A stretch of DNA of 64,000 bases from an uncultured Bifidobacteriaceae bacterium (GCA_964442845.1 CAYUAX010000002.1:14360-78359), one strand, 5' to 3'. Positions 2,310 to 28,613 are shown, counted from the stretch's first letter. Notes: generated by a model not told the origin, from the letters alone. Translations and numbers: made by a program.

Positions 2310-3731
2310 TCAGGGCACGGTGAGATAGCGGTCGACGGCGGCCGCCGCCTGGCGGCCGTCGGCGATGGCCCAGACGATGAGCGACTGGCCGCGCTGGACG
2401 TCGCCGGCCGCGAACACGCCGGGGACGCTGGTCATCCACCCGTCGTCACGCCAGACGGTTTCGCGCTCGGTCATCCGCACCGCCAGGTCGTCGAGCAGCG
2501 CGTTGCGCTCGGCGCCGACGAAGCCCATCGCCAGCAGCACCAGGTCGGCCGGCAGCGCGAACTCGCTGCCCGCGACGGGCGTGAAGGTCGGCCGGCCGTC
2601 GGCGACGGCGCGGGTCACGCGCAGGCCGTGCAGGGCGCGGACGTGGCCGTCGCCGTCGCCGGTGAAGTGGGTGGTCGTGACGGCGTAGAGCCGTTCGCCG
2701 CCTTCTTCGTGGGCCGACGACGTGCGGAAGACCAGCGGCCAGGTCGGCCAGGGGTTGTCGGCGGCGCGTTCGGCCGGGGGCTGCGGCAGCAGCTCGAGCT
2801 GGACCACGCTCTGCGCCCCCTGGCGGTGCGCGGTGCCGAGGCAGTCGGCGCCGGTGTCGCCGCCGCCGATGATCACCACGTGGCGGCCGGCGGCGGTGAG
2901 CGTCGACGCGTCGATGTCGTCGCCCTCGCAGCGGCGGTTCTGCGCGGTCAGGTAGTCCATGGCGAAGTGGATGCCGGCCAGCTCGCGGCCCGGCACCACC
3001 AGATCGCGCGGGCGGCCGGCGCCGCCGGCCAGCAGCACGGCGTCGAAGCCGCGGCGCAGCTCCGCGGCGGGCAGATCGACGCCGACGTGCACGCCCGGAC
3101 GGAACACCACGCCTTCGGCGGCGAGCAGGGCCAGACGGCGCTCGAGCACCTGCTTCTCCAGCTTGAACTCGGGGATGCCGTAGCGCAGCAGCCCGCCGAT
3201 GCGGTCGCTCTTCTCGAACACCGTCACGCTGTGGCCGGCGCGGTTGAGCTGCGCGGCGGCGGCCAGCCCGGCCGGCCCCGAGCCGATGATCGCGACCTTC
3301 TTCCATGTGCGCGCCCGCGGCGCTTCGGGCACGATCCAGCCCTCGTCGAACGCCCGATCGACGATTGCCAGCTCGATGCCCTTGATCGTCACCGGCTCCT
3401 TGTTGAGGCCGAGCACGCACGAGCCCTCGCACGGCGCCGGACACAACAGCCCGGTGAACTCCGGGAAGTTGTTGGTCTGGTGCAGCCGCTCGATCGCCGC
3501 CTGCCACGAGTCGCGGTAGACGAGGTCGTTCCAGTCGGGGATGAGGTTGCCGAGCGGACAGCCCTGGTGGCAGAACGGCACGCCGCAGTCCATGCAGCGC
3601 GACGCCTGGCGGGTCAGCTCGTCGGCCGGGTAGGCGGCGTAGACGTGCCGGTAGTCGTGCACCCGCTCGGCCACCGGCCGGGCGGGCGGCTTGACGCGGG
3701 CGAACTCGATGAATCCGGTGGCTTTACCCAT
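2310..3731 (-). CDS. gltD: glutamate synthase small (beta) subunit
   Basis: Last 473 codons of track ORF 2310..7568. ATG checked at 3731 (MGKATGFIEF...). Cys clusters CMDCGVPFC and CPAPCEGSC, and a GSGPAG dinucleotide fold. Lies 8 nt downstream of gltB. Confidence 0.95.
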   Translation of the reverse strand: MGKATGFIEFARVKPPARPVAERVHDYRHVYAAYPADELTRQASRCMDCGVPFCHQGCPLGNLIPDWNDLVYRDSWQAAIERLHQTNNFPEFTGLLCPAPCEGSCVLGLNKEPVTIKGIELAIVDRAFDEGWIVPEAPRARTWKKVAIIGSGPAGLAAAAQLNRAGHSVTVFEKSDRIGGLLRYGIPEFKLEKQVLERRLALLAAEGVVFRPGVHVGVDLPAAELRRGFDAVLLAGGAGRPRDLVVPGRELAGIHFAMDYLTAQNRRCEGDDIDASTLTAAGRHVVIIGGGDTGADCLGTAHRQGAQSVVQLELLPQPPAERAADNPWPTWPLVFRTSSAHEEGGERLYAVTTTHFTGDGDGHVRALHGLRVTRAVADGRPTFTPVAGSEFALPADLVLLAMGFVGAERNALLDDLAVRMTERETVWRDDGWMTSVPGVFAAGDVQRGQSLIVWAIADGRQAAAAVDRYLTVP

Positions 3732-3739
3732 GGCGTGCC

Positions 3740-8356
<4,617 letters not shown>

Positions 8357-8449: not shown

Positions 8450-8803
8450 TCAATGCGGCACCGGCGTCACCGCGTCCTGGTCCTGCTCGCCGGTGCGGAT
8501 GCGGTAGATCTTCTCGATTGGCAGGACGAGGATCTTGCCGTCGCCGACCTCGCCGGTCCGCGCCGCCTCGAGGATGGCGTCGACGGTCGGCTGCACGAAG
8601 TGGTTCGAGACGCCGATCTCGAGCCGCACCTTCTCGGCCAGCGCCATCTTCACGGTGGTGCCGCGGTAGTTCTCGACGTGCTCCATCTCGCCGCCGTGGC
8701 CCTGCACGCGGCTGATGGTCAGGCCGCGCACCTCGGCGTGGAACAGCGCTTCGAGCACCTCGCTCAGGCGCTCCGGCCGGATGACGGCGACGATCAGCTT
8801 CAC
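8450..8803 (-). CDS. glnK: P-II nitrogen regulatory protein
   Basis: VKLIVAVIRPERLSEVLEALFHAEVRGLTISRVQGHGG...NYRG (T-loop Tyr)...GDGKILVLPIE. The GTG start at 8803 overlaps the amtB stop (GTGA, 8800-8803). It is the tail of track ORF 8450..10846. Confidence 0.93.
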   Translation of the reverse strand: MKLIVAVIRPERLSEVLEALFHAEVRGLTISRVQGHGGEMEHVENYRGTTVKMALAEKVRLEIGVSNHFVQPTVDAILEAARTGEVGDGKILVLPIEKIYRIRTGEQDQDAVTPVPH

Positions 8804-10089
8804 AGCCGGCCGCCGTTCTGCAGCGCGACGACGTCGCTCAGCCGGCGGGCCGCCGCGGCGTCGCCGGGCGAGACCAGGATGGCGCCGTCGCCGGTGGTGT
8901 AGGCCTCTTCGCCGTGTTCGGCGACGTCGAGGCCGACGCCCTCGACCTTGCCGCTGATGCGCAGCGGCATCGCCAGGCCGACCAGTTTGAGAATCACGAA
9001 GGTGGCGACGCCGCTGTAGGCCAGCACGACGATCACGCTGTAGAGCTGCACGGCGATCTGGCCGGGGTTGCCGGCGAGCAGGCCGGCCGGCCCGCCGCTC
9101 CACGCCGGGTCGGCGAACACCCCGGTGAGGACGGCGCCGGTGGCGCCGCCGGTGCCGTGCGCGGCGACGACGTCGAGCGAGTCGTCGAGCTTGGTGCGGG
9201 CCCGGTAGATGAGTGCGAAGTACGACGGCACGGCGCCGAGCGCGCCCATCGCCAGGGCGGCCGCCGGGCCGACGTAGCCGGCGGCCGGCGTCACCACGAC
9301 GAGGCCGACGACGATGGCGGTGGCGGCACCGACCGCGGTCACCCGTCCGCCGCGGGCCAGGTCGATCACCAGCCAGGTCGCCAGCGTGGCCGCCGGCGCC
9401 AGCAGCGTGTTGGTGAAGGCGAGCGCCGCGGCCGGCGACGCCCCCAGGGCGCTGCCGGCGTTGAAGCCGAACCAGCCGAACCAGAGGATCCCGGCGCCGA
9501 GCAGCGTGAACGGCACGTTGTGGGGCAGGATGGCGTGGCGGCCGTAGTCCTTGCGCGGCCCGACTACCAGCGCCGCGACCAGCGCGGCCGCGGCGGCGTT
9601 GACGTGGACCACGGCGCCGCCGGCAAAATCGAGGGCTCCGGCCGTGGCCAGGAAGCCCCCACCCCACACCCAGTGCGCCACCGGCGCATAGACCAGCAGC
9701 ATCCAGGCGACGACGAACGCCACGTAGGTGCCGAAACGCAGCCGCTCGACGATCGCGCCCGAGATCAGCGCCGCCGTGATGATCGCGAACGTGCCCTGGA
9801 AGGCCATGAACAGCAGGTGCGGGATGGCGCCCTGCGCGTCGAGGCCGACGCCCTGCAGCCCGGCGAAGCCGAACGAGCCGATGAACGGCGTGCCGGGCGA
9901 GAACGCCAGCGAATAGCCGACCAGCGCCCAGGCGACCGCCACCGGGCCGAGCGCGACGAAGCTCATCATCATCGTGTTGAGGGCGTTCTTCGAGCGGACC
10001 ATGCCGCCGTAGAAGAAGCCCAGCGCCGGTGTCATCAGCAGCACCAGGGCCGTGGACACGAGCATCCACGCGATGTCCGCGTTGTTCAT
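8800..10089 (-). CDS. amtB: ammonium transporter (Amt family)
   Basis: MNNADIAWMLVSTALVLLMTPALGFFYGGMVRSKN... and a polytopic Amt-like sequence throughout. The ATG at 10089 is preferred; the track ORF starts at a GTG at 10110. Confidence 0.95.
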   Translation of the reverse strand: MNNADIAWMLVSTALVLLMTPALGFFYGGMVRSKNALNTMMMSFVALGPVAVAWALVGYSLAFSPGTPFIGSFGFAGLQGVGLDAQGAIPHLLFMAFQGTFAIITAALISGAIVERLRFGTYVAFVVAWMLLVYAPVAHWVWGGGFLATAGALDFAGGAVVHVNAAAAALVAALVVGPRKDYGRHAILPHNVPFTLLGAGILWFGWFGFNAGSALGASPAAALAFTNTLLAPAATLATWLVIDLARGGRVTAVGAATAIVVGLVVVTPAAGYVGPAAALAMGALGAVPSYFALIYRARTKLDDSLDVVAAHGTGGATGAVLTGVFADPAWSGGPAGLLAGNPGQIAVQLYSVIVVLAYSGVATFVILKLVGLAMPLRISGKVEGVGLDVAEHGEEAYTTGDGAILVSPGDAAAARRLSDVVALQNGGRL

Positions 10090-10356
10090 GACGATATTGA
10101 ATAGAGACACGCCGTCTCATGTCCAATACGTGTTTCTTGTCGTTCCCATGCGGGCGGTGCCATCGCCGCTGGCGGACGCGTCCATGCCGCCGGCGCATCC
10201 GCTGTGCGGCGCGGCCGCGCCCGTGGTGGCGGCGGACGTCGGAGGACGGAGCGGCGAACCGAGGGGAGGGATCGAATCTGGCGGGCGGGCGCGCGGCCGT
10301 CGTCGGCCGCGCCGATCGTGAGCGCGGCCAGGCGCGCCCACGATCGGCAGCGGGTC

Positions 10357-11898
10357 TCAGGGCGTGATCGTGACCGGGCGTTCGGCGATGCCGGTCAGCA
10401 GGTTGAGCGTGCCGGCCTGGGTGAGGGCCGACAGCCACCTGTAGAGGCCGGGCGGCGTGCCGGCCGGAATCGCCAGCGCGGCGATTTCGAGGTCGAGATC
10501 CACGGGGACGAAGTTGCGGGCGAGCGGCACCAGGCCGGGCACGAGGCCGCCGCCGGTCCACGACAGCAGCTGCCCCGACGGCAGCTGCAGCACGACGTAG
10601 GCGTCGGCGGGCGTGGCCGCCTTGTCCTTGCGCAGGCGGGCGCGGAGGCGCATCACCTCGCCGGGCCGCACCGACGGGGCATTGGTCGTCGTGGTGAGCG
10701 TGGCCGAGTGGAACTGGATGTTGCCGTTGCGGATCAGCCGCGGCGCCCGCGCTTCGACCACCTGGCCGGCCGAGACGATCGTCACCCCGAAGCGATCGTT
10801 GAACGGCGGCTCCCCGTTGTCCTCGGTGAGGACGCTGAAGGTGCACGACGGCAGGAAACCGTCACACGTGCCCGACAGCCGTGCGGTCTTCGGCGCGCCC
10901 TCGGCATCGAGTGCGACCACCGCCACGTCGGTGACCGGGCCGTTGATGTGGAGGTTCGGCGCGACGACGTGGTTGACGTAGTTGAACGTCCCGGTCGCCG
11001 GCCCGCCGGCCGCGCCGGGCTGGCCGTTGAAGCCGTAGTTGGCGAACCCGGTGCCGGTCGCCGTCGGATCGGTGACCGTCGGATCGTTCGGCACGCTGAT
11101 GCCGCCGCCGCCGGTGACCTTGAACGCGGTATGGGTGGGCAGGGCCTGCCCGAAGCTGCAGGCGCGGACGGTGGCGCCGTCGGTGGTCACCGTGCCGTCC
11201 TCGACGCCGGCGCCCAGCGAGACGGCGCGGCCGTCGACGGACGCCCCGGCGCCGATCGTAATCGCCCCTTCAGCCAGGATGTTGCCGACGAGTGCGGCCC
11301 CCGCGCCGACACCCACCGTGCGCGCCGCGGTTGCCGCGCTGGCGTCGCCGACCTGCCAGTAGACCTTGCTGCCGCCACAGGTGGCCGGGGCGACGATCGG
11401 CGCGGTCACGGCCACCCCGGGGGCAATCGCCAGGTTGCCGTCCACCAGCACGATCCATGGACCGGCGCCCGTGAGCGCCAGGTTCGCGGCGACGGTGACG
11501 TCGCTGGTGAAGCAGTGCGTCCCGGTGGCCAGGGTCGCGCCGAGCGGCTGGTCGGTGTTGCCTGGGACGCAGCTGCGGGCGGCCAGGTCGGCGTAGACGA
11601 GGCCGGCGCTCTGCAGGGCCTGCGCGGCCACGGCATCGCCAGTGTGAAGCGCGCTGCCCGCGGCGAGTTCGCCGGCGGTCACGCCGGTGATGGCGCCGCC
11701 CGGGCCGACGCCGACGTCGCCGCCGAACGTGGACGTGCCGCTGTCGGTGACCGTCGTCTTCGCCAGGACCGCGAAGCTCTCGGCACCGCCGAGCGGCGGC
11801 ACCGTCTGCGCGGCGGCTGACGACGCGCCGACCAAGGCCAACAGCGCACCGAGGGCGAGGTGTCGAACCGCGGTCGCAGAAGCAGGAGTTACATACAT
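10357..11898 (-). CDS. secreted DUF3494 (ice-binding-like) domain protein with a long C-terminal extension
   Basis: ATG checked at 11898. Signal peptide ...LVGASSAAAQ. LGGAESFAVLAKTTVTDSGTSTFGGDVGVGPGGAITG is the hallmark N-terminus of DUF3494 beta-solenoid proteins, followed by a ~250-aa unassigned C-terminal part. Confidence 0.75.
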   Translation of the reverse strand: MYVTPASATAVRHLALGALLALVGASSAAAQTVPPLGGAESFAVLAKTTVTDSGTSTFGGDVGVGPGGAITGVTAGELAAGSALHTGDAVAAQALQSAGLVYADLAARSCVPGNTDQPLGATLATGTHCFTSDVTVAANLALTGAGPWIVLVDGNLAIAPGVAVTAPIVAPATCGGSKVYWQVGDASAATAARTVGVGAGAALVGNILAEGAITIGAGASVDGRAVSLGAGVEDGTVTTDGATVRACSFGQALPTHTAFKVTGGGGISVPNDPTVTDPTATGTGFANYGFNGQPGAAGGPATGTFNYVNHVVAPNLHINGPVTDVAVVALDAEGAPKTARLSGTCDGFLPSCTFSVLTEDNGEPPFNDRFGVTIVSAGQVVEARAPRLIRNGNIQFHSATLTTTTNAPSVRPGEVMRLRARLRKDKAATPADAYVVLQLPSGQLLSWTGGGLVPGLVPLARNFVPVDLDLEIAALAIPAGTPPGLYRWLSALTQAGTLNLLTGIAERPVTITP

Positions 11899-12014
11899 GG
11901 GCCCACCACTCTCTCCAGAGAGATACCCTGACTCGGCCGAATTCATGACGTCGGACGAGCCGGACCCCTCCGAGTTGGCGTAAATTGCAAGCTCTGGGCC
12001 AGCACGCGCAGCCG

Positions 12015-14323
12015 ATGGGCCGAGTCGACGCCGTGGCCGGCTGTGCCGGGCCGTTCGCGTCTCGCCGCCGAATTCGTCGTGGCCGGCGCGTGGCGGCGGG
12101 TGTTCTTGCCACGCTCGCGGTCTTGACGGCGACGGCGGTGACGGCCCAGCCGATCACGATTTCGTCATTGGTCGAACGTACCGCACCGGACGGCGTCACC
12201 ATCCGCGCCGTGCGCCTCGAGACGCCGCTGCGCCTCGACGGCCGCCTCGACGAAGACGTCTACGGTCGTGTCGGCCCGCTCACCGACTTCCTGCAGCAGG
12301 AACCGCGCGAAGGCCAGCCGGCCACCGAACGCACCGAGGCGTGGATCCTCTTCGACGACGCCAACCTCTACGTGTCGGCGCGCTGCTGGGACAGTCACCC
12401 CGAACGCGAGGTGGCCAACGAGCTGCGCCGCGACAACGGCAACATCCTCGGCAACGAGAACGTGACGTTCGTGATCGACACCTTCCACGATCGCCGCAAC
12501 GGCTACCTGTTCCAGACCAACCCGCTCGGCGCGCTGCGCGACATGACCGTGACCGACGACCTGCAGAACTCGGCGTGGAACGGCATCTGGTACGTGAAGA
12601 CCGGCCGCTTCGCGCAGGGCTGGACGGTGGAGGTGGCGATCCCGTTCAAGACGCTGCGCTACCGCGGCAGCGGGCCGCAGACCTGGGGCCTCAACCTGCG
12701 CCGCCTGGTCAAGTGGAAGAACGAGTTCTCGTACCTGTCGCTGGTCCCGGCCGCCCTGGGCACGCAGGGGGTGAGCCGCATGGCGTCGGCGGCGACGGTG
12801 ATCGGCCTCGAGACGCCGGCCGCGTCGAAGAACGTCGAGTTCAAACCCTACGCGGTCGGTGCGGCGACGACCGCCCGCAGCGGCGGCACCTACGCCGACG
12901 ACGGCCAGGCCAACGCCGGCTTCGACTTCAAGTACGGGCTCACCCGCGGCCTGATCGCCGACGCCACCGTCCGCACCGACTTCGCGCAGGTCGAAGAGGA
13001 CCTGCAGCAGATCAACCTGACCCGCTTCAGCGTGTTCTTCCCCGAGAAGCGCGAGTTCTTCATCGAAGGCCAGGGCATCTTCGACTTCGGCGGAGTGCAG
13101 GCCGGCAACAGCCCCGGCGACGTGCCGCTGCTGTTCTTCAGCCGGCAGATCGGCCTCAGCCAGGGCCGCGCGGTGCCGGTGCTGGGCGGCGTTCGCCTCA
13201 CCGGCCGCGCCGGGGCCTACAGCATCGGCGCCCTCGACATCCAGACCGACGACGCGCCAGCCGCCGCCGCCGTGTCGACCAACTTCTCGGCGCTGCGCCT
13301 GAAGCGCAACCTGTTCCGGCGCAGCAACGTCGGTCTCATCGCCACGCGGCGCGATCCCGGGCCGCTCGCCGCCGCCAGCGGCCGCCGCGACGCCAGCTAC
13401 AGCCTCGGCGCCGACGCGACGCTGCTCTTCTTCAAGAGCGTCAGCGCGACGGCTACTACGCGCGCGCCGCCGCCCCCGACGCCGCCGGCCGGATGGCGAC
13501 CGGCGCCAGCTACCGCGGCCGGGTGGACTACACGGACGACCGCTACGGCGCCGCCGCCGAGCACCTGCTCATCGACCGCGATTTCCGCCCCGAGGTCGGG
13601 TTCGTGCGCCGGCCCGACATGCGCCGGACGTTCGCGCAGCTGCGCTTCAGCCCGCGGCCGCGGCGCAGCGCCGTGGTCCGCAAGCTGACCTGGCAGGCGA
13701 GTTACGACTACGTCACCGACGCCGCCGCGACCACCGTGCAGAGCCGCGAGGCCTCCGCGCTGTTCCGCCTCGACTTCCAGTCGTCCGACCAGCTGTCGAC
13801 GGAATACACGCGCGAGTACGAACGGCTGCCGGAGCGGTTCCCCATCGCGCCCGGCGTGCACGTGCCGGCCGGCGGCTACACGGCGACGACCGCGCGCGTG
13901 AGCTACGCGCTGGGTCAGCAGCGCCGGGTGTCGGGCCGGCTGTCCGCGGCCACCGGCACGCTCTACGACGGCACGCGCTCGGAGTTCTCCTACAGCGGCC
14001 GGTGGGGCGTCGTGCCGCGCTTTTCGGTGGAGCCGACGGTGTCGCTCAACGTCGTCTCGTTGCCCTACGGCGATTTCACGGCGCGGCTGATGAGCGCGCG
14101 CTTCACGGTGACGCCGACGGCGCGCATGCTGATCAGCAGCCTGGTCCAGTACAACGTCGACCAGGCGACCACCAGCGCGAGCCTGCGGCTGCGCTGGGAG
14201 TACACCGGCGGCAGCGAGCTGTTCGTCGTCTACAGCGACGGCCGCGACACCCGCCCCGCCGGGTTCCCCGCGCTGGTCAACCGCACGCTGGCGGTCAAGG
14301 CGACGCGGCTGTTCCGGTTCTGA
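12015..14323 (+). pseudogene. CBM9-like / DUF5916 family secreted protein, reading frame broken near 13440-13450
   Basis: Track ORFs 11985..13688 (frame 0) and 12341..14323 (frame 2) together form one protein. Credible sequence runs in frame 0 to ...ATLLFFKSVSA and resumes in frame 2 at DGYYARAAAPDAAG...TRLFRF. One base appears to be missing. ATG at 12015 followed by a signal peptide. Confidence 0.7.
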
Positions 14324-14335
14324 GCGGCAGGCGAC

Positions 14336-14375
14336 TAGTGGCCTGTCCTGTACATATGACTAGGACAGGCCACTA
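14336..14375. terminator. bidirectional hairpin between convergent genes
   Basis: Perfect 14-bp inverted repeat: TAGTGGCCTGTCCT (14336-14349) and AGGACAGGCCACTA (14362-14375), with a 12-nt AT-rich loop. It overlaps the TAG stop of the minus-strand gene. Confidence 0.6.
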
Positions 14376-17300
14376 CGGCACGACGACCGTCGTCGCCGCC
14401 GCCGGGCTCATCCCGCACGGTCCCACCGCGTGCACGTTGATCGGCCAGGTGCCGCGCGGCAACGGCCCGCTGATCGACCGCTGCGCCAGTGGCAGGTTGC
14501 CGATGCCCGGCACGCTCACCAGGTAGCTCGACACCGCGCCGCCGGACAGCGGCGGATCCCACAGCAGGAACGTGGTGCCGCCCGCCACGTAGCCGAGCAG
14601 CTCGGTCGGCGGTCCCGGAGCCGCGCCGCACGTGCCCGGTACGACGATCGCCACCGCCGACGTCGAGGTGCTGGCCCCGCCGGCGTTGGTCGCGCGCAGC
14701 GACAGCGTGAAAGCGCCGCCCGGCGCGCCGCCGAAGGCCAGCCGCTCGACCTGCGGCAGCGGCAGCGACGCCGCCAGCGACCCGCCGACGTCGAGGACGA
14801 CGCCGGTGGGCGGGCCGCCGTCGAACGACGGCGCCCACGACAGGTGCACCGCCGAGCCGACCGCGGTCGCCTGGAAGGCCCGCGGCGCCGCCGGCGGCAC
14901 CGGCACGTTGACGTGGAGCGGGATCTCGTTCGAGACGCCGCTCGGTCCGCCGGTGCCCAGGGTCCTGAGCCGCACGAAGAACGAGCCCGTCGGCGCGTTC
15001 ACGTTGAAGACCGGGGCGGTGCTGGTCGCCAGGGCGACCAGCGGCTGGCCCGGCGCGACGCCGCCTTCGAGGACGTAGCCGGTCGGCTCGGGCCCGACCC
15101 CGGGGGGCCGCCACCGGAAGGTCACCGTATTGCCGGTGATGGCGGAGACGCGCACGAACCGCGGCGCTTCGACGACGGTGGGGTGCGCGACGTTGATCGC
15201 GACCGTCACGGTGTTGCCGGTGCCGCTGCTGGTGTCGGCCCGGTACGAGAACGTCTCCACGCCGGCGAACCAGCGGTTCGGCGTGTAGCTGAAGCTGCCG
15301 TTGGCGTTGAAGGACAAGGTGCCGTTCGGCGTCGTCGCGATCAGCTGCGCGGTGAGGCCCGGCGATCCGTGCGCGTTGTCGTTGGCGAGCACGCCCGGCG
15401 CGGCGATGGTCAGCGGGGTGACGTACGAGGTCGCGTAGCCGTCGGCGAACGCGATGAGCGGTTCGTCGTTGACGATGGTCAGCACGCCGCTGGCGTCGGC
15501 GACGGTGGCGCCGAGCGGGTTGGCCACGGTCACCACGACGGTCTCGTCGGCCTCGTAGTTGGTGTCGCCGCGCACCGTGACCGGCAGCGGCCAGCTGGTG
15601 GCGCCGGCCGGGACGACGGCGACCGCGCCGGCGACGGCGTCGTAGTCCGCGCCGGCCGTGGCCGTGCCGTCGCTGGTCGAGTAGGCGACGGCGACGTCGG
15701 TGAGCGCCGCCGCCGACAGCGTGATCGTGACGTTGCCGACCCTGGTGCCGCTGTTGCCTTCGACGACCGCCCCGTCGCCGACGGAGATCGTCGGCAGTGA
15801 CGACGCCGCCACGTAGCGCAGCGACACGGCGCGCGGCGCGCCGCCGGCGGCCGGACCGACCGCGATCACCTGGGACGTGCGGCCGTTGACGACCATCGCC
15901 GTCGGGATCACCGCCTGGCCGTCGATGCGGACCTCGGCGAGGACGCGCGTGCCGAACGACGGCGGCACCATCAGGCTCTGCACCGGCGCGCCCCCGGGCA
16001 CGGCCATGGTGAAGGTGAGGCGGCCGAGCCCCGCGTCCCAGCTCATCGCGCTCATCGTCGAGGCGGCACGGGCCTGCACGAAGTCGTGCCACCGGCGCGC
16101 CGTCCACATCGGGATGTTCTGGCTGGCGGCGTAGGCCAGCGTGCCGTCCACCCACGGCTTCACTTCGTCGTAGGGGTAGTAGTCGACGTGGAACTGCGTG
16201 GCGATGGCCGAGTGGCCGCCGCCCTGGCTGGCGTCGATCAGCTGGCGCGACACGGCCAGCGCCGCCGCCACCGACAGCCCCTCGCTGTTCAGACCGGCGA
16301 CCAGCTGCTCGTCGGCGAGCGATGTCGACTGCTGGAACACCGGCAGCAGCTGCCCGCTGGCATCGACGAAGCGCATCGGCAGGCCGCTGCCGTTCAGATA
16401 CCCGTGCGCCTGGCTCTGCTGCGAGGGGTTGTGCACCGCCGGCCCGAACGTCGAGTACGACAGGTCCATGCCGATGCCGAAGCCCGGCATCACCGCGACC
16501 GGCGACACCCACCCGGCCCACTCGAGCGTGTGATGGCGCACCGTCGGTCCCGGCGGCATCGGCAGCGAGAACTGGAACCAGTCGAAGACGGTCGTGTAGC
16601 CCTGCGCGAAGCTGGTGACGCCGTCGTCGGCGAACACCGGATGGACGCTGATGTCGTGGCCGGCAGCCACCCAGGTGCTGACCGGATTGGCCGACATGTC
16701 GAGGAAGCGGGCGAGGTACAGCGTCATGCGCGCGCCGACGGCTTCGACGGCGGCGAGCAGCCCGGCGTACGACGCCGGCGTCTGCACGTGGCTGTCGCCG
16801 GTCGGGATCAGCAGCGTTCGCGCCGTGCCCGGGAAGTACCAGAGCCGCGGCAGCGGCAGGTGATCGGCGAGCAGATCGCCGATCACGCGGCTCAGCAGCC
16901 GCATCTGCACGTCGGCGTGCGGCACGGCCAGGCGCTCGAGATCGATGGTCTGGTAGAACGGCTCGGTGGTGCGGTACGGCACGAGCCCGTCACGCTCGGT
17001 GCCGGCGAACGCCGGGTCGCCCTGACGCGTGTAGGCGGTGCTGCGCGCCAGATCGAACGCCCACGCCGCCGTGCGGTTGTGCCGCACCACCGCCGGAAAT
17101 GCGCTGGCGGTCGTCCGCGTGGTGTAGAGACTGGCCACCGTGGTGGCGCCGGCGCTCACGTAGTGCTGCGCCGGGCCCTTGAATGGCAGTGTGAGATTCG
17201 GCAGGCCGGCGCCGGGGCCGCCTTGATCGATGAGCGTGTAGCCGTTGCTCGTCGACCCGGCGGCGGCGGCGATGCCGAGTACGGCGTGCAGCTGCGGATC

Positions 17301-17621
17301 GGGCCGCATCGCGACCAGCCGGCCGCCGCCGTTGACGAAGCCGGTGAACAGCGCGGCCTGCGGCGCGGTGAGCGGCGTCTCGGCGAGCAGCACGAGCGAC
17401 GTGGCGTCGAGCGTCGCGGCGTCGACGCTGCCGAGCGACGCGACGCCGAACGCGGTGATGCCCTCGGCTCTCAGGATCTCCGCAAGGTAGGGGCCGAACG
17501 GATTGCCGCTCGCTCCATTGACGACGACGAGCACGACTGGAGACGTCCCGACGGCGCGAAGTCCACCGCCTGCCAGCCACGATATCGCCACGACGCACAG
17601 CACGCCCGCGAGTTTGCGCAT
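14373..17621 (-). CDS. large secreted multidomain protein (unassigned N-terminal module + Calx-beta + cadherin/VCBS-like + 3 FN3-like modules), paralogue A
   Basis: ATG checked at 17621 (MRKLAGVLCVVAISWLAGGG signal peptide). Calx-beta-like ISVGDGAVVEGNSGT...STSDGTATAGADYDAV. APGVLANDN repeat. Three FN3-like repeats. Alignable along its length with the next gene. Confidence 0.85.
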   Translation of the reverse strand: MRKLAGVLCVVAISWLAGGGLRAVGTSPVVLVVVNGASGNPFGPYLAEILRAEGITAFGVASLGSVDAATLDATSLVLLAETPLTAPQAALFTGFVNGGGRLVAMRPDPQLHAVLGIAAAAGSTSNGYTLIDQGGPGAGLPNLTLPFKGPAQHYVSAGATTVASLYTTRTTASAFPAVVRHNRTAAWAFDLARSTAYTRQGDPAFAGTERDGLVPYRTTEPFYQTIDLERLAVPHADVQMRLLSRVIGDLLADHLPLPRLWYFPGTARTLLIPTGDSHVQTPASYAGLLAAVEAVGARMTLYLARFLDMSANPVSTWVAAGHDISVHPVFADDGVTSFAQGYTTVFDWFQFSLPMPPGPTVRHHTLEWAGWVSPVAVMPGFGIGMDLSYSTFGPAVHNPSQQSQAHGYLNGSGLPMRFVDASGQLLPVFQQSTSLADEQLVAGLNSEGLSVAAALAVSRQLIDASQGGGHSAIATQFHVDYYPYDEVKPWVDGTLAYAASQNIPMWTARRWHDFVQARAASTMSAMSWDAGLGRLTFTMAVPGGAPVQSLMVPPSFGTRVLAEVRIDGQAVIPTAMVVNGRTSQVIAVGPAAGGAPRAVSLRYVAASSLPTISVGDGAVVEGNSGTRVGNVTITLSAAALTDVAVAYSTSDGTATAGADYDAVAGAVAVVPAGATSWPLPVTVRGDTNYEADETVVVTVANPLGATVADASGVLTIVNDEPLIAFADGYATSYVTPLTIAAPGVLANDNAHGSPGLTAQLIATTPNGTLSFNANGSFSYTPNRWFAGVETFSYRADTSSGTGNTVTVAINVAHPTVVEAPRFVRVSAITGNTVTFRWRPPGVGPEPTGYVLEGGVAPGQPLVALATSTAPVFNVNAPTGSFFVRLRTLGTGGPSGVSNEIPLHVNVPVPPAAPRAFQATAVGSAVHLSWAPSFDGGPPTGVVLDVGGSLAASLPLPQVERLAFGGAPGGAFTLSLRATNAGGASTSTSAVAIVVPGTCGAAPGPPTELLGYVAGGTTFLLWDPPLSGGAVSSYLVSVPGIGNLPLAQRSISGPLPRGTWPINVHAVGPCGMSPAAATTVVVP

Positions 17622-17713
17622 CTCGACACACACCCCGTCCGGAACGACAACGACACCATGTGCCACCTCCGTATTCTTCTGCACCGTCGCGTGATCAGCA
17701 ACGAAAAGCTGCA

Positions 17714-17733
17714 CCGATCACATTTGTGATCGG
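17714..17733. promoter_or_regulatory. perfect 9-2-9 palindrome upstream of paralogue A
   Basis: CCGATCACA-TT-TGTGATCGG, ~93 nt upstream of the 17621 start, in the 213-nt spacer between the paralogues. It could be an operator or a weak hairpin. Confidence 0.3.
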
Positions 17734-17834
17734 CATGCGGCGGCGGCTTGACGTGGGACGAAACGCGGCGTACGCGGGTCGGGCGCCGCGGATCACCCGC
17801 GACGCCCGACGGAGGGCCGAGGTGGCGGGCGGCG

Positions 17835-20800
17835 CTACGGCACGGTCAGTGCGAACGTCGCCGGCGCGCTGGTGCCGCACGCCCCGACGGCGTGGACGGC
17901 GATGGTGTGGGTGCCGGCCGGCAGCGGACCGCTGATCGACCGCGTCGCGACCGGGAACGCGCCGATGCCGGCGACACTCACGAGGTAGCCCGTTGGCGCC
18001 TCGCCGCTGGCCGGCGGATCCCAGACCACGAAGGTCGTGCCGCCGCTGACGTAGGCCAGCAGTTCGGTCGGCGGCGCCGGCGCGGACGGGCACGCGCCTG
18101 GGACCGTGACGGCGACGGCGGCGGACGGCGCGCTCGCCCCGGCGGCGTTCACGCTGCGGACGGCGAGGGTGTAGCTGCCGGGCGGGACGCCGGTGAACGA
18201 CACCCGTTCGCCGGCGGGCAGCGGCAGCGCCGCGGCGATCGAGCCGCCGACCTGCAGCACGGCCGAGGTGGGCTGGCCGCCCGCGAAGGTCGGCCGCCAC
18301 GCCACGTGCAGCGTGTCGCCGCTCACCGTCGCCTGCAGATCGGCGGGCGCCGACGGCGCCACCGGCACGTTGACGTGCACGAGGGTCTCGTTCGACACGG
18401 GACTGGGCCCGCCGGTTCCGAGCGACCGCACCCGCACGAAGAACGACCCGCTCGGCGCGTCGACCGTGAGGATCGGCGCTGTTCCGGTCGGCAGCGCCGC
18501 CAGCGTCTGCGCCGGCAGCAGCCCGCCTTCGACGACGTATCCGGTCGGATCAGGGCCGATCTCCGGCGCCTTCCACCGCAGCGTCACGAGGTTGCCGGAC
18601 ATCGCCGCGATGCGCAACTGCGCCGGCGCCTGCACCACCGTGGGCTCGTTCACCGTGAGCGTCACCGTGGCGGTGCCACCACTTCCGGCGGCGCTGCTGG
18701 CGCGATAGACGAAGCTGTCGGTGCCGGCGAAGCCGGTGTCCGGGGTATAGAGGACGCTGCCATTCGGACCGAGGGTCAGGGCGCCGTGGGCCACGCCGCT
18801 GACGAGGGCGGCCGTCAGGCCCGGCGCGGTGTGCGCGTCGTCGTTGCCGAGCACGCCCGGCGCCGCGACGGTGAGGGTCGTCTCGAAGGGCGTCGTGAAC
18901 GCGTCGGCCGCCGGCGTCGGCGGCTCGAGGCCGACGCTCAGCGTGACGGTCACGCTGTTGCCGGTGCCGCTGCCGTCGACGACGCGGTAGACGAAGCCGT
19001 CGTTGCCCGTGTACCCGGTCGTCGGGGTGTACTCGATCCGCCCGTCGGCGCCGAGCGTGAGCGAGCCGTTGGCGACCCCGGAGACCAGCTGCGCCGTCAT
19101 CGTGCCGCCGCCGTCGTTGCTGTCGTTGCCGAGCACGCCCGGCGCGGCGACGACCAGCGGGGTGTTGAACGCCGTGGCGTAGCTGTCGGCGACCGCCGTC
19201 GGCAGCACGTCGTCGTCGGTGATCGTGCCGGTGGCCACCGCCGTACCGAGCGTGGCGTTGGTCGGGGCCGACGCGGTGACCGTGAAGGTCTCGGCCGGCT
19301 CCACCACGATGTCGCCGCTGACGTTGACCGTGGCGTTCTGCAGGACGACGCCCGGCGTGAAGGTGACGGTGCCGCTCGCCGCCGCGTAGTCGGCGCCGGC
19401 CGTGGCCGTGCCGTTGGCGGTGGCGACGCTGACCGTGACCGTCCTGCCGCTCGGCGCCGACAGGCTGACCGGGAACGTCGCGGCGGTGGTGCCGGCGTCG
19501 CCCTCGATCACGCTGACGCCGGCGATCGAGACCGCCGGGGGGGCGTCGTCGTCGGTGATGGTGCCGGTGCCGCCGGCGGTGCCGATCGTGCCGTTCACCG
19601 GGGCGGAGAGCGTGATCGTGAAGGCTTCGTCGTCCTCGTCGAGGGCGTCGTTGAGCACGGCGACGCTCACCGTCTGGCTCGTCACCCCGGGCAGGAACGT
19701 GACGGTGCCGGTGCCGGCCGTGAAGTCGACGCCGGTGGTGGCGGTGCCGCCCGCGGTCGTATAGGTAGCGCTGACCGTCTGCAGGCTGCCCGCCGACAGC
19801 GTCGCGGTGAAGACCGCGCTCGCCGCCGGCCCCTCGGCGACGGTGGCGTTGCCGATCGAGATCGCCGGCGGCGCCGGGCCGATGGCGGTCACGCCGACGT
19901 CGTGGACGACGGGCGCGGCCACCGGATCGACGGTGGCGAGTTCGAGCCGGTACTGCAGGTAGCGCCCGTTGGGGCTGGTGATCGCGGATCCGCTGGTGGT
20001 CAGCGGCGCCGACCAGGCGCTCCACGTCACGCCGTCGAGCGACGAACGCGTGCGGGCCTGGACGGTCGCACCCGTTGGCGTCGTCGCGGTCCACGACAGC
20101 TGGTTCCAGACGACCGACAGCAGCGCGTCGATGGCGCAGCTGTCGAAGGAGCCGGCGGCGGCGACCGGCGGATCGATCTCGACGGTGTCCACGTCGAGCG
20201 TCGGCGTGGCGCCGCCGGCTTCCGACAGGAACAGGTAGCGGGCGGCGGGCAGGTCGCCGGCGGTCACGGTGTGCTCGGCCACCACAGCGCCGTCGATGCG
20301 ATAGCGGATGAGCTCGGTGGCGCCCTGGGCGATGCGCTCGATCGTGAAGACGTGATACCCGGTCGGAATCGGTCCGAGGTCGTCGAGAATCGGGCCGCTG
20401 AGCGGATTGGTCGTCGCCCACAGGTTGGTGCCGCCGGCCTCGGTCGAGAAGCGCGTGTACTTGGTGGCCATCTGATTGTCGTCGGCCTGGCCGATCAACT
20501 GGTACGGCGAGGCGTTGAAGCGGGCGCGGACCTCGAGCGTCGTGCCCGTCAGCGCGCTGGCCGAACGGATGTAGGCGCCGTCGGCATTGCCGAGCGACAG
20601 CACGCCGCCCGCGGGCACCGGCGCGTAGGGGGTCGGCGGAACGACCCACGATCCGGAGATCCACTGGGGATCGAGGCTGGTGCCGTCGAAGTCGTCACGG
20701 AACGTGCCGAGCAGCCGCACGTCGCCGGCCGAGCCGACGCGGGTTCCGCTGGTCGCCGAGCAGGTGCTGAAGTCGGCCGCCGAGGTGTGCGTCCAGGCGG

Positions 20801-23021
20801 TCGGGTCGGGCTCGTCGTCGAGGATCGTGACGACGCCGCTGCTGTCGCCAAAGGTGGCGCCGACCGGGTTGCTGAGCGTGACGAGGACGGTCTCGTTCGG
20901 CTCGCTGACGGTGTCGCCGTTGACGGTGATCGGCAACGGCAGGCTGGTGACGCCGGGGGTGAAGGTGAGCGTGCCGCCGCCGGCCAGGTAGTCGGCGCCG
21001 GCGGAGGCGGTGCCGTTGGCGGTGGCCCAGCCGATCGTGACGTCGGTGGCGGCCGCCGCCGACAGCGTCACCGTCAAGCCGGCGGTGGTCGTGCCGGCGT
21101 CGGTCTCGACCACGGAGACGTCGTTGACGGCGACGGTCGGCAGCGAGGCCGGCGTATCGTATCGGGCGACGACGGCGCGCGCGCCGCCGCCGATCGACGC
21201 GACCGCGAAGAACTGCGTCGCTCGCCCATTCACCATCACCAGGGTCGGCGCCACCGTGGCGCCGTCGAGGGTCAGGTGGCTCAACGTCCGGCCGGCGAAA
21301 GTCGTCGGCAGCGTGACCGTCTGCGGCTCGCCACCGGCGGGAACGGCGACCGAGAAGGTGAGGACGCCGGTCCCCGGCGTCCACGTCACGGCGCTCACCG
21401 CGGTGGCGGCGCGATTCTCGGTGTAGGAGAGCCACCGCTCGGCCGTCCACATCGGGATCTGCTGACCGGCGGCGTAGGCGAGCGTCCCGTCCACCCACGG
21501 CTGGACGTTGCCGAACTGGTAGTAGTCGACGTGGAACTGCGTGGCGATTGCCGAGTAGCCGCCGGCCTGGCTGTCGTCGATCAGCTGGCGCGACACGGCC
21601 AGGGCCGCGGTCGGTGTCAGGTTCTGCGAGTAGGGCCCGCCGATGTTCAACAGCTGTTCGTCGGTCAGCGCGGTGTGCTGCTGATACACCGAGAGCACCT
21701 GGCCGGTCGTGGTCACGAACTTCATCGGCAGCCCGCTGCCGTTCAGATACCCGTGCGCCTGCGAGGTGACGTCAGGATTGGCCAGCGCCGGACCCCATGA
21801 GTAGTACGAGAGGTCCATCCGGATACCGCGGGCGGCCATCACGCTCACCGGGTCGATCCAGCCGGCCCACTCGATGCTGTGGTGACGGCTGGTCGCGCTC
21901 GGCGCCAGCGGCAGCGACTGGAACCACGTTGTGGCGACGTCATAGCCCTGCACGAAGTCGCCTTCGAAGCCGTCGGCGGCGAAATACGGGTGCATCCCCA
22001 CCTCGTGACCGTTGGCCAGCCAGGTGCCGACCGGGTTCCCGGTGAGATCGAGGAAGCGAGCGAGGTAGAGAGTGATGCGCGCGCCGGCGTTCTCCACGGC
22101 GCCGATGAGCGCCGCAAACGCCGCGGGGGCGCCGGTGTGGCTGTCGCCGGTGGGAATCAGCAGCGTCCGGCTGGCGCCCGGGAAATACCACAGCCGCGGC
22201 AGCGGCGTCGCGTCGGCGAGCAGCTCGGCGATGACCCGGACGAAGAGGCGCTGGTGCACGTCGGCGTGCGGCACGGCGACGCGCTCGAGATCGATCGTCT
22301 GATAGAAGACGTCGTTGGTGCGGATCATCGGCGGCCCGGGCAGCAGGTCGCGGTCGACGCCGGCGAACGCCGGATCGCCCTGCCGTGTGTAGGCGGTGCT
22401 GCGCGCCAGATCGAACGCCCAGGCGGCCGTGGCGCCATTCCGTACCACGGCGGCCCGGCTCGCCGACGTGGTGCGCGTGCTGTAGAGCTCGGCCACGGCG
22501 GTCGCGCCGGCGAGGTCGTAGTGGGCGGCCGCGCCCCTGAACGGCAGTGTGACGTTCTGCAGGCCGGCCCCCGGTCCGCTCTGCACGACCAGCGCGTAGC
22601 CGTTCGTGGTCGACCCGGCCGCGGCGGCGATGCCGAGCGCGCCGTGGAGCTGCGCGTCGGGCCGCATCGCCACCAGCCGGCCGCCGGCGGCGACGTAGTC
22701 GATGAAGAGCGTCGCCTCCGGCGCGGTGAGCGGCGTCTCGGCGAGGACGACCAGCGTGGCCGCGCCGAGCGTCGGCGCATCGAGTGCCGACAGCTGCACG
22801 ACGTCGAACGTGTTGATGCCCTCGGCGCGGAGGATCTCCGGCAGATAGCGTCCGAAGGGATTGGGGGCGGAGTCGTTCAGCACGACCAGGATCGGCGCCG
22901 GCGCCCCGCCTTGGCCACGCACGCCGCCACTCATCGCCGCGACCATCGCCAGCATCGCCGCTACCAGCACCCACTTGCGCTTTTCCACCGACCACTCCTT
23001 CTCGGGTGCCGGCCCGTGCAC
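17835..23021 (-). CDS. giant secreted multidomain protein, paralogue B (same N-terminal module, 3 Calx-beta, LamG/ConA-like insert, 2 cadherin/VCBS-like, 3 FN3-like)
   Basis: 1728 aa with a hydrophobic signal region WVLVAAMLAMVAAMSGG. Calx-beta-like segments around aa 630-740, 1050-1160 and 1160-1270. The same C-terminal triple module as paralogue A. Confidence 0.85.
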   Translation of the reverse strand: MHGPAPEKEWSVEKRKWVLVAAMLAMVAAMSGGVRGQGGAPAPILVVLNDSAPNPFGRYLPEILRAEGINTFDVVQLSALDAPTLGAATLVVLAETPLTAPEATLFIDYVAAGGRLVAMRPDAQLHGALGIAAAAGSTTNGYALVVQSGPGAGLQNVTLPFRGAAAHYDLAGATAVAELYSTRTTSASRAAVVRNGATAAWAFDLARSTAYTRQGDPAFAGVDRDLLPGPPMIRTNDVFYQTIDLERVAVPHADVHQRLFVRVIAELLADATPLPRLWYFPGASRTLLIPTGDSHTGAPAAFAALIGAVENAGARITLYLARFLDLTGNPVGTWLANGHEVGMHPYFAADGFEGDFVQGYDVATTWFQSLPLAPSATSRHHSIEWAGWIDPVSVMAARGIRMDLSYYSWGPALANPDVTSQAHGYLNGSGLPMKFVTTTGQVLSVYQQHTALTDEQLLNIGGPYSQNLTPTAALAVSRQLIDDSQAGGYSAIATQFHVDYYQFGNVQPWVDGTLAYAAGQQIPMWTAERWLSYTENRAATAVSAVTWTPGTGVLTFSVAVPAGGEPQTVTLPTTFAGRTLSHLTLDGATVAPTLVMVNGRATQFFAVASIGGGARAVVARYDTPASLPTVAVNDVSVVETDAGTTTAGLTVTLSAAAATDVTIGWATANGTASAGADYLAGGGTLTFTPGVTSLPLPITVNGDTVSEPNETVLVTLSNPVGATFGDSSGVVTILDDEPDPTAWTHTSAADFSTCSATSGTRVGSAGDVRLLGTFRDDFDGTSLDPQWISGSWVVPPTPYAPVPAGGVLSLGNADGAYIRSASALTGTTLEVRARFNASPYQLIGQADDNQMATKYTRFSTEAGGTNLWATTNPLSGPILDDLGPIPTGYHVFTIERIAQGATELIRYRIDGAVVAEHTVTAGDLPAARYLFLSEAGGATPTLDVDTVEIDPPVAAAGSFDSCAIDALLSVVWNQLSWTATTPTGATVQARTRSSLDGVTWSAWSAPLTTSGSAITSPNGRYLQYRLELATVDPVAAPVVHDVGVTAIGPAPPAISIGNATVAEGPAASAVFTATLSAGSLQTVSATYTTAGGTATTGVDFTAGTGTVTFLPGVTSQTVSVAVLNDALDEDDEAFTITLSAPVNGTIGTAGGTGTITDDDAPPAVSIAGVSVIEGDAGTTAATFPVSLSAPSGRTVTVSVATANGTATAGADYAAASGTVTFTPGVVLQNATVNVSGDIVVEPAETFTVTASAPTNATLGTAVATGTITDDDVLPTAVADSYATAFNTPLVVAAPGVLGNDSNDGGGTMTAQLVSGVANGSLTLGADGRIEYTPTTGYTGNDGFVYRVVDGSGTGNSVTVTLSVGLEPPTPAADAFTTPFETTLTVAAPGVLGNDDAHTAPGLTAALVSGVAHGALTLGPNGSVLYTPDTGFAGTDSFVYRASSAAGSGGTATVTLTVNEPTVVQAPAQLRIAAMSGNLVTLRWKAPEIGPDPTGYVVEGGLLPAQTLAALPTGTAPILTVDAPSGSFFVRVRSLGTGGPSPVSNETLVHVNVPVAPSAPADLQATVSGDTLHVAWRPTFAGGQPTSAVLQVGGSIAAALPLPAGERVSFTGVPPGSYTLAVRSVNAAGASAPSAAVAVTVPGACPSAPAPPTELLAYVSGGTTFVVWDPPASGEAPTGYLVSVAGIGAFPVATRSISGPLPAGTHTIAVHAVGACGTSAPATFALTVP

Positions 23022-28234: not shown

Positions 28235-28613
28235 GGCTTCACCTCCCACGCGGCCTGGAAGTGCAAGATACGTGACAACCCGGAATTGCGCGGATTGACC
28301 ACTGATTTCCGTGCCGGGTCTGCCGCGAAGGTGGGATCTACCGTGTAGGTCCTTCCCGGCGCCTCATGGCTGAGCTGGGGACCATGGGCCGGGGCACGAC
28401 GGCCGGAGGGGGGCCAGGCCGCCGCCCGCGCCGTGGCCCGTCCTGCTACATCCGCGCCGCGATTCCACCGATATGTCGTGCTGGAGCCTCGCCCGCGACC
28501 GTGCACGGACTGCCCGTCGCTTCGGTGGATTGCGCACTCTGGCGGCCCGTCCCGCCGTCACGGCCGCGGTGTCTCCGCGCCCGTCGCGCGGCCGCTCTCG
28601 GCGGGATGCCCCG

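Follow-up and report, generated by a model that had tools for sequence, protein, structure and literature searches.

The 64,000-nucleotide stretch of DNA from an uncultured Bifidobacteriaceae bacterium (GCA_964442845.1 CAYUAX010000002.1:14360-78359), referred to here as the window, contains two adjacent, co-oriented genes on the minus strand, denoted A and B, which encode giant proteins with predicted export signals. Coordinates are positions in the window, and residue numbers follow protein B unless A is stated. An initial annotation, made from the sequence alone, had described A and B as tandem paralogues built from shared parts, and the list of open reading frames (ORFs), BLASTP, and Pfam all agreed with that description. 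In BLASTP, the N-terminal parts of A and B were 60% identical over 732 residues (E = 0) and the C-terminal parts 54% identical over 396 residues (E = 2e-118). The GTG codon at 22988, the likely start of B, lies directly 3' of a GAAGGAG ribosome-binding site. The G+C content at third codon positions was 0.94 for A and for B, which is typical of real genes in a window with 72% G+C. A scan of 14.0-24.2 kb was uninformative: it detected no promoter-like sites, and its single terminator-like site, which lies inside B, does not exceed what shuffled sequence yields.

Table 1. Parts of genes A and B, with window coordinates and the basis of each assignment (aa, amino acids; pLDDT, predicted local distance difference test).
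Feature	Position	Strand	Length or basis
Gene A	14373..17621	-	~1082 aa from ATG at 17621 (MRKLAG...); maximal ORF 14373..17714, 1113 aa
A signal peptide (MRKLAGVLCVVAISWLAGGGLRA)	17550..17621	-	Read from sequence
A N-terminal three-domain module, aa 58-637	15804..17543	-	62% identical to B module
A Calx-beta	15513..15746	-	Pfam PF03160, E = 3.7e-11
A Big_9/cadherin-like repeat (APGVLAND)	15192..15470	-	Pfam PF17963, E = 4e-12
A three FN3-like modules with Cys pair C1029/C1100	14376..15182	-	Pfam fn3; 61% identical to B trio
Gene B	17835..22988	-	~1717 aa from GTG at 22988; maximal ORF 17835..23021, 1728 aa
B signal peptide (VEKRKWVLVAAMLAMVAAMSGGVRG)	22914..22988	-	Read from sequence
B alpha/beta/alpha domain, GATase1/ThuA/DUF4350-like, no Cys nucleophile, aa 40-270	22212..22904	-	AlphaFold2 pLDDT ~97 there
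B CE4-like (beta/alpha)7 barrel, aa 271-540	21402..22211	-	AlphaFold2 model, Foldseek, residue conservation, CE4 motif alignment
B beta-sandwich closing the N-terminal module, aa 541-625	21147..21401	-	AlphaFold2 strands 502-583 of modelled fragment; no Pfam match
B Calx-beta 1	20814..21122	-	Pfam PF03160, E = 5e-17
B-specific insert, aa 736-1065: ConA-like jelly roll and small beta-sandwich	19827..20816	-	AlphaFold2, Foldseek; absent from A
B Calx-beta 2 and 3	19209..19823	-	Pfam PF03160, E = 2e-16 and 1.2e-18
B two Big_9/cadherin-like repeats (APGVLGND)	18654..19205	-	Pfam PF17963, E = 1.5e-16 and 9.8e-15
B three FN3-like modules; last with Cys pair C1644/C1715	17838..18653	-	Pfam fn3 per module E = 0.04, 1e-4, 0.19

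Both proteins begin, as the initial annotation had noted, with a signal peptide. Read from the sequence, the two N-termini are of the Sec type, with a basic n-region followed by a hydrophobic core and a stretch rich in Ala and Gly. Signals for twin-arginine translocation (TAT) were found instead of Sec signals in 26 of 64 homologues, and together these signals indicate an extracytoplasmic location for the family. By eye, the termini of the A and B proteins show no PEP-CTERM, LPXTG, or lipobox motif. Six runs of identical residues had been quoted as common to the pair; all six were present in both A and B, and each fell in a block conserved across the family in the alignment consensus. The runs thus point to purifying selection, and recent gene conversion was rejected as their source because they coincide with family-wide conserved blocks.

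The C-terminal halves consist of repeated modules that had been proposed from their motifs and were recovered by Pfam. Calx-beta (PF03160) occurs once in A and three times in B, and Big_9/Cadherin_5 (PF17963; APGVL[AG]ND) once in A and twice in B, with both families matching above the gathering score. The expected trio of FN3-like modules, each of ~90 aa and with a conserved Cys pair in the third, gave marginal fn3 scores of 29.3 bits for whole B and 31.8 bits for a C-terminal fragment of A, against a cut-off of 25.

The N-terminal module common to A and B, ~585 aa long, had been left without a named family, and our searches came to the same result. It gave no Pfam or NCBIfam match above cut-off and no match to PDB sequences, and a profile of 64 family members found nothing above noise among PDB sequences. 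The module has no Pfam, NCBIfam, or CAZy-type assignment although it is common. Residues 40-650 of B were modelled with AlphaFold2 (AF2), using the 64-sequence homologue alignment as input, and the model had a pLDDT of 92.7 and a predicted template modelling (TM) score of 0.92. Three domains were resolved (in model residues): an alpha/beta/alpha domain (1-~230), a (beta/alpha) barrel (~240-500), and a beta-sandwich (502-585). The top Foldseek match in the PDB was PelA of Pseudomonas thermotolerans (9cgy, E = 1.3e-10, 710 aligned columns). The next matches had the fold of carbohydrate esterase (CE) family 4, namely 3rxz, HpPgdA (3qbu), ArnD (8t0j, E = 8e-6), insect chitin deacetylase (5zns), SlCE4 (2cc0), VdPDA1 (8hfa), and also 7bly, with E values from 1e-8 to 4e-4 and, for the six named first, target-normalised TM scores of 0.55-0.69, the highest for SlCE4. 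Among the 50 listed of 78 significant matches, all barrel matches were deacetylases of the CE4, CE21, or ArnD type. By AF2 and Foldseek, the barrel has the (beta/alpha)7 deacetylase fold of CE4/NodB.

The first ~200 aa had been likened to GATase1/ThuA proteins, and this likeness held. The first domain matched, in Foldseek, the GATase1-like middle (trimerisation) domains of glycoside hydrolase (GH) family 42 beta-galactosidases, IFT52-N, HisH (4gud), and the GMP-synthetase GATase (7yc6). Weak Pfam matches among the 64 homologues were to DUF4350 in 40, GATase1_like in 29 (E <= 0.1), Glyco_hydro_42M in 26, and ThuA in seven. In A and B themselves, neither DUF4350 (PF14258) nor ThuA (PF06283) matched above the gathering score; DUF4350 reached 23.0 bits (E = 1e-4) in B and 18.5 bits in A, below its cut-off of 30.4 bits. 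The Foldseek and GATase1_like matches show the flavodoxin-like alpha/beta/alpha fold of class I GATases in the first domain. No cysteine occurs anywhere in the N-terminal module of A or B, so the Cys-His-Glu triad is absent and a working glutamine amidotransferase was rejected. The first domain is a non-catalytic GATase1-like fold.

In the barrel, D293, H295, H344, R379, H381, and D454 were invariant in the 64-sequence alignment, and H497 and D499 nearly so. By residue mapping, the equivalents in A are D307, H309, H358, R393, H395, D468, H509, and D511. In a wider set of 263 relatives, which included representatives clustered at 50% identity, conservation was 98% for D293, 91% for H295, 97% for H344, 100% for R379, 96% for H381, 99% for D454, 95% for H497, and 89% for D499. 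Conservation of the putative Asp and His ligands was the check proposed in the initial annotation. Where H295 was substituted, the replacement was Glu or Asp, both of which can bind metal, in 19 of 24 cases, a pattern to be expected of a metal ligand.

The residue pattern D293-x-H295, H344, R379-x-H381, D454, H497-x-D499 can be compared with the five CE4 motifs (MT1 to MT5). R379, D454, and H497 occur in the same sequence order as the MT3 Arg, MT4 Asp, and MT5 His. MT1 reads T-G-D293-S-H295, not TFDDG, and lacks the adjacent Asp pair; the two-His form of MT2 in CE4, H(S/T)xxH, is also absent, with H344 aligning with its first His. Using hhalign against a NodB alignment (E = 2e-3 and 9e-4), T-G-D293-S-H295 fell on T-F-D-D-G, ITLYL on ATFFV, and H344 on NodB H79, the first MT2 His, and R379 stood three residues before the RxPY arginine, NodB R118. 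The NodB set consisted solely of orthologues 61-84% identical to its first sequence (P0268) and is shallow, and these alignments were used solely as support for colinearity. A barrel-only profile aligned GHEFGLHP on GH.V..H(S/T) of the CE4 entries 5jmu (E = 0.05) and 7bly (E = 0.16), both sub-significant. A match to the GAF region of the adenylate cyclase 1ykd (E = 0.009) falls in the insertion between MT3 and MT4 and was treated as chance. In profile alignments, ARITLYL coincided with the ATFFV strand of CE4 and GHEVGMH with its GHEVANH, as proposed when a NodB/CE4 motif order was initially suggested, an order that the Foldseek matches also favoured. These alignments are individually weak but mutually consistent. 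They put D293 at the presumed catalytic-base position, with Ser or Ala apparently replacing the canonical metal-binding Asp, and H381 or H497 may complete the putative metal site in the absence of the second MT2 His. The conserved residues may converge on one site.

PelA is built from a hydrolase domain, a ThuA/IFT52-like alpha/beta domain, a CE21 deacetylase, and a beta-rich domain, in this order (PMC12022489). In PelADA of B. cereus, an alpha/beta/alpha domain shown to bind N-acetylgalactosamine (GalNAc) oligomers (carbohydrate-binding module CBM114) is followed by a CE26 barrel and a beta-rich domain, and its authors called PelADA reminiscent of Agd3 (CE18 + CBM87) (PMC13254593). The N-terminal module of A and B has, like Pseudomonas PelA (CE21, 9CGY), an alpha/beta domain, then a (beta/alpha)7 deacetylase barrel, then a beta-rich domain, and it shares the three-domain layout with PelADA (CE26 + CBM114) and Aspergillus Agd3 (CE18 + CBM87). 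The beta-sandwich of B matches the beta-rich domain of PelA and PelADA in position. Because of this common domain order, the modelled module is placed architecturally in the PelA/Agd3/PelADA class of exopolysaccharide deacetylases. By sequence, however, it appears to belong to none of the three, as the family profile finds nothing in PDB sequences.

PelA is exported, as are A and B by their predicted signals, and it modifies an exopolysaccharide. D528 of PelA is the base and D530 a metal ligand, and the spacing of D293-x-H295 equals that of D528-x-D530. However, the ligand two residues after the base is Asp in PelA and would be His in the module, and PelA H526 is replaced by Thr. PelA has H-x-D-x-D at MT1 and H-x-x-x-H at MT2, whereas the module has T-G-D-S-H and a single MT2 His; PelA lacks the MT3 arginine, whereas R379 is invariant near the MT3 position. 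In addition, PelA carries an N-terminal GH166 hydrolase domain, while the module begins with the alpha/beta domain straight after the signal peptide, and A and B do not lie in a pel operon. The 64-member profile found no PelA chain among PDB sequences at E <= 10 (HMMER).

PelADA H488/D491 resembles H497-x-D499 of the module in having an Asp shortly after the MT5 His; the MT5 His of PelADA is in addition a zinc contact and is tuned by the Asp that follows MT5 (PMC13254593). PelADA keeps an adjacent Asp-Asp (D262/D263) and HxxxH (H350/H354), whereas the module does not. Both PelADA and Agd3 were, like the module, too divergent in sequence for any existing CE family. Neither appeared in the PDB-sequence search or among the 50 of 78 Foldseek matches listed, and PelADA perhaps lies outside the PDB set searched. 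Their substrates are alpha-1,4-GalNAc polymers, which is not implied for the present family. Canonical CE4/NodB proteins (PF01522) share the barrel fold and colinear motifs with the module, including an arginine (RxPY) near R379. However, the module has an insertion of ~50 residues, including a beta-hairpin, between MT3 and MT4, its barrel is flanked by two further obligatory domains, it lacks the metal-binding Asp and the second metal-binding His, and it has no PF01522 match above the gathering score. ArnD is a structural match (8t0j), whereas the module family is exported (TAT/Sec) and three times the size of ArnD.

A homologue search returned 158 proteins, mostly unnamed stand-alone proteins of ~670 aa from Chloroflexota and Vicinamibacterales. 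Searched against 1.84 billion clusters at 50% identity, the 64-sequence family profile found 3,550 representatives at E <= 1e-3 and at least 1,396 at E <= 1e-30, and many family representatives were proteins of 1,000-3,300 aa. At least 573 loci were confirmed in 185,579 species genomes. The best-matching loci were mostly in Chloroflexota; others were in Vicinamibacterales and other Acidobacteriota, and a few in Actinomycetota, Chroococcidiopsis, Binatia, and proteobacterial metagenome-assembled genomes (MAGs). The nearest relatives of the window genes were in Vicinamibacterales MAGs, at 80-82% identity, and A and B are regarded here as proteins of a soil acidobacterium. In several long-read metagenome contigs (ERZ250395xx; among them L009 5476..17617 and L008 10001..13933), the giant homologous genes are broken up into series of short Calx-beta ORFs, probably through assembly frameshift errors, so database protein lengths would understate the number of giant relatives.

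Gene neighbourhoods were read by gene, with a tblastn census of 77 loci, 46 of which spanned at least 18 kb. A co-oriented cluster recurred in Chloroflexota, with a GFO_IDH oxidoreductase, a glycosyltransferase family 2 (GT2) protein of ~250 aa, a small EamA protein, Epimerase_2 (the UDP-N-acetylglucosamine (UDP-GlcNAc) 2-epimerase family), a DAO/amine-oxidase, and a PMT_2 glycosyltransferase of the GT-C type. One or more of these genes were present in 28 of the 46 longer loci and three or more in 19, and a PMT_2 gene lay co-oriented and less than 600 bp from the family gene in 17 of the 77. Wzy, Wzz, Bac_transf, and GT4 genes were found at other family loci. Because of the Chloroflexota cluster and these other loci, the family is placed, on gene context, in extracytoplasmic glycan biosynthesis or modification. 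The cluster was seen at L002 (770..17760), L005 (1..18298), L006 (15197..17965), and many of L018-L069, sometimes also with GT87, a GH38 C-terminal-domain protein, BNR, or Wzy, and is apparently undescribed. A regular-expression search found no canonical CE4 genes in 87 family loci or the window.

The Chloroflexota cluster resembles pathways with a polyprenyl-phosphate-N-acetylhexosamine (HexNAc) donor. The Arn pathway uses a polyprenyl-phosphate sugar donor, and the GT2 protein of ~250 aa, the small EamA protein, and PMT_2 resemble ArnC, ArnE/F, and ArnT, respectively, in role. The set of GT2, small EamA, and PMT_2/ArnT-like GT-C genes mirrors the Arn and mycobacterial PpgS/Rv3779 pathways, in which a polyprenyl-phosphate sugar is synthesised, deacylated, flipped, and used for GT-C transfer. 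Unlike the Arn system, the family does not occur in a lipid A setting, and A and B are not linked to any such cluster.

The reading that we favour, at a probability of roughly 60%, is that A and B are secreted, metal-dependent carbohydrate deacetylases or esterases of the PelA/Agd3/PelADA architectural class, carried on Ca2+-binding, lectin, and Ig-like stalks. It is supported directly by the fold, the domain order, the residue conservation, the export signals, and the linkage of relatives to glycan-synthesis genes, while metal binding, catalysis, and the substrate of A and B are what we infer. A and B would be exported by Sec and would modify extracellular or surface glycans, with the ~585-aa module acting as a three-domain carbohydrate de-N-acetylase or esterase of the PelA/Agd3/PelADA type. 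The alpha/beta/alpha domain, having no nucleophile, would extend a polysaccharide-binding groove, as CBM87 does in Agd3 and CBM114 in PelADA. The (beta/alpha)7 barrel would hold a divalent metal and hydrolyse an acetamido or acetyl group by the CE4-type reaction. D293 would be the general base, positioned by R379; H295 and H344 would be metal ligands, possibly with H381 or H497 as a further ligand; and H497, tuned by either D454 or D499, would act as the general acid. The beta-sandwich would buttress the barrel. The Calx-beta, ConA-like lectin (B only), Big_9/cadherin-like, and FN3-like parts would form a stalk, probably Ca2+- and carbohydrate-binding, that retains the enzyme within the matrix or on the cell surface. 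Since UDP-GlcNAc 2-epimerase genes recur in the linked clusters, the substrate is likely to be a polymer containing HexNAc.

Several points weigh against this reading. At position 294, Ser or Ala stands in place of the metal-binding Asp of TFDDG; Ala, Ser, or Gly occurs there in ~80% of 260 relatives, and 28 have Asp. Nor is the second His of MT2 HxxxH conserved, with Glu or Asp at position 348 in only 38% and otherwise Tyr, Asn, or Thr. The sequence links to CE4 are weak: the hhalign probability was 13-23%, the PDB profile search did not rise above noise, PF01522 gave no match in A or B even at E <= 10, and Polysacc_deac_1 (PF01522) was touched by only three of the 64 homologues, with a best E value of 5.7e-4. 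No exopolysaccharide-synthesis genes lie next to A and B within the 64-kb window, which also contains none of the Chloroflexota partner genes (GT2, EamA, Epimerase_2, DAO, PMT_2), and the PMT_2 cluster is absent from most Vicinamibacterales loci. Moreover, a CE4 fold alone is no guarantee of deacetylase activity. The initial suggestion that A and B are polysaccharide-modifying enzymes rather than pure adhesins is backed by the fold and by conservation, whereas the motifs proved non-canonical for CE4 and the activity itself is predicted. Two outcomes had been named in advance as telling against it, a match to a non-enzymatic family and a lack of conservation at the His/Asp positions, and neither was observed.

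With two canonical metal ligands missing, C-terminal halves made of typical adhesin modules (Calx-beta, Big_9/cadherin-like, FN3), and inactive CE4-fold proteins known to exist, the module might instead be a pseudo-enzyme or lectin, a degenerate CE4 fold that binds carbohydrate, and A and B might be adhesins or matrix scaffolds. We consider this unlikely, since seven polar residues at CE4-motif positions are 91-100% conserved in relatives that are only 34-50% identical, since the Glu/Asp replacements of H295 follow a metal-ligand pattern, and since most relatives are stand-alone proteins of ~670 aa that have no adhesin modules and lie in glycan-synthesis operons. Those operons fit another proposal, of comparably low probability, in which the family deacylates lipid-linked sugars, acting on a polyprenyl-phosphate-HexNAc donor before PMT_2-type GT-C transfer and not on the finished polymer. 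Such an enzyme would be chemically analogous to ArnD, which is among the Foldseek matches, and to the polyprenyl-phosphate-GalNAc deacetylase of the PpgS/Rv3779 pathway. The adjacency and co-orientation of PMT_2 in 17 of the 77 loci and the recurrence of the GT2 protein, small EamA protein, and Epimerase_2 speak for it. In the mycobacterial PpgS/Rv3779 galactosamine pathway, deacylation reportedly proceeds by an unknown mechanism at an undetermined location, and the deacylase is reported as unknown (PMC5964476). However, the best structural match and the three-domain layout are those of the polymer-level deacetylases PelA, PelADA, and Agd3, and the window proteins and many relatives are giants with lectin and Ig-like stalks that do not lie beside PMT_2, which fits an enzyme acting on a polymer away from the membrane.

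No characterised CE family has exactly the motif set of the module (D-x-H, a single His, R-x-H, D-E, H-x-D), and a GH38 C-terminal-domain protein is found in a few linked clusters. The barrel could accordingly perform other chemistry of seven-stranded barrels, such as glycoside hydrolysis of the GH38/GH57 type or metal-independent amidohydrolysis of the PuuE type. We regard this as very improbable, because the conserved residues are ordered and spaced as in CE4 from MT1 to MT3, and because GH38, GH57, and PuuE are absent from the 50 of 78 Foldseek matches listed, in which the barrel matches are all deacetylases. A wider proposal, which we offer tentatively and hold to be possible but less likely than not, is as follows: the module would found a new carbohydrate-esterase family, with a metal site of D-x-H and a single MT2 His, possibly completed by H381/H497. 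Its ancestral role, visible in Chloroflexota, would be extracytoplasmic deacetylation in an undescribed polyprenyl-phosphate-HexNAc/GT-C (PMT_2) envelope-glycan pathway, as the counterpart of the mycobacterial PpgS/Rv3779 deacylase, and the Vicinamibacterales giants would reflect secondary recruitment onto adhesin-like stalks.

If A and B are secreted deacetylases of polysaccharides, thousands of proteins now labelled hypothetical or Calx-beta would acquire a testable function, and the family would form a fourth lineage of three-domain exopolysaccharide deacetylases beside Agd3/CE18, PelA/CE21, and PelADA/CE26. Its metal-site signature differs from all three, which bears on how far CE4-type catalysis tolerates ligand replacement. 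Deacetylation renders polysaccharides cationic and adhesive, and enzymes of the A/B type may for this reason shape the biofilm or soil-aggregate matrices of Chloroflexota and Acidobacteriota, phyla that are abundant and have few cultured members. In Chloroflexota, the close linkage to PMT_2/GT-C genes points to an undescribed envelope-glycan pathway.

Protein B contains an insert of ~330 aa (residues 736-1065) that is not present in A, was not described in the initial annotation, and overlaps the end of Calx-beta 1 by one codon. Its AF2 model (pLDDT 79) matched GH16 enzymes and L-type lectins in Foldseek (3i4i, 3dgt, 4bpz; E = 4e-7 to 4e-6; target-normalised TM 0.5-0.6), so that by AF2 and Foldseek it has the concanavalin A (ConA)-like jelly-roll fold of GH16. 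The insert had no Pfam match and the ExDx(x)E motif occurs nowhere in B; a GH16 glucanase was rejected because this motif (ExDxxE) is absent. For the modelled insert, binding in the manner of a lectin is likelier than catalysis. In 37 of the 77 loci, the same ConA-like/Calx-beta module lies immediately downstream of the family gene, often in two to five copies. The part that is fused into B is thus encoded by a separate neighbouring gene in many Chloroflexota, an argument for joint action of the two parts.

The same tandem pair was found in L011 and L012; identity to the window proteins is 80-82% for their B orthologues and 75-80% for their A orthologues, whereas the paralogues A and B are only ~60% identical. 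In another Vicinamibacterales MAG (L015), a single B-like gene with the insert lies at the syntenic site, next to a DUF5916 gene, so the duplication took place after that split. A afterwards shed its lectin insert along with two Calx-beta domains and a Big_9 repeat.

The convergent gene downstream of the pair (11985..14323, plus strand) encodes a CBM9 and then a DUF5916 domain and ends in an RLFRF motif; by eye, its product looks like an outer-membrane beta-barrel. In the window it is split over two frames, with the switch at ~13443-13508, whereas the orthologues in L011 and L015 are single-frame, which indicates a frameshift in the window that reflects a pseudogene or a sequencing error. L012 retains no more than fragments of this gene. 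Two genes downstream of A, a 529-aa Ice_binding-like protein (10357..11946, minus strand; PF11999, E = 2.4e-17) is probably a secreted surface protein.

Other genes in the window include nitrogen-assimilation genes that look ordinary (2310..8356 and 8450..10110, both minus strand). They encode the large subunit of glutamate synthase (3740..8356), below which lies a small-subunit-like Fer4_20/Pyr_redox_2 region, and a P-II protein (~8486..8800), upstream of which a 436-aa ORF may be amtB. Also present on the plus strand, with no established link to A and B, are a Ser/Thr kinase of 1053 aa (37794..40955), a CBM4_9/arabinofuranosidase-like protein (44666..46636), and a dCache-HAMP-GGDEF-EAL protein (28473..31070) for turnover of cyclic di-GMP, which is often tied to matrix production.

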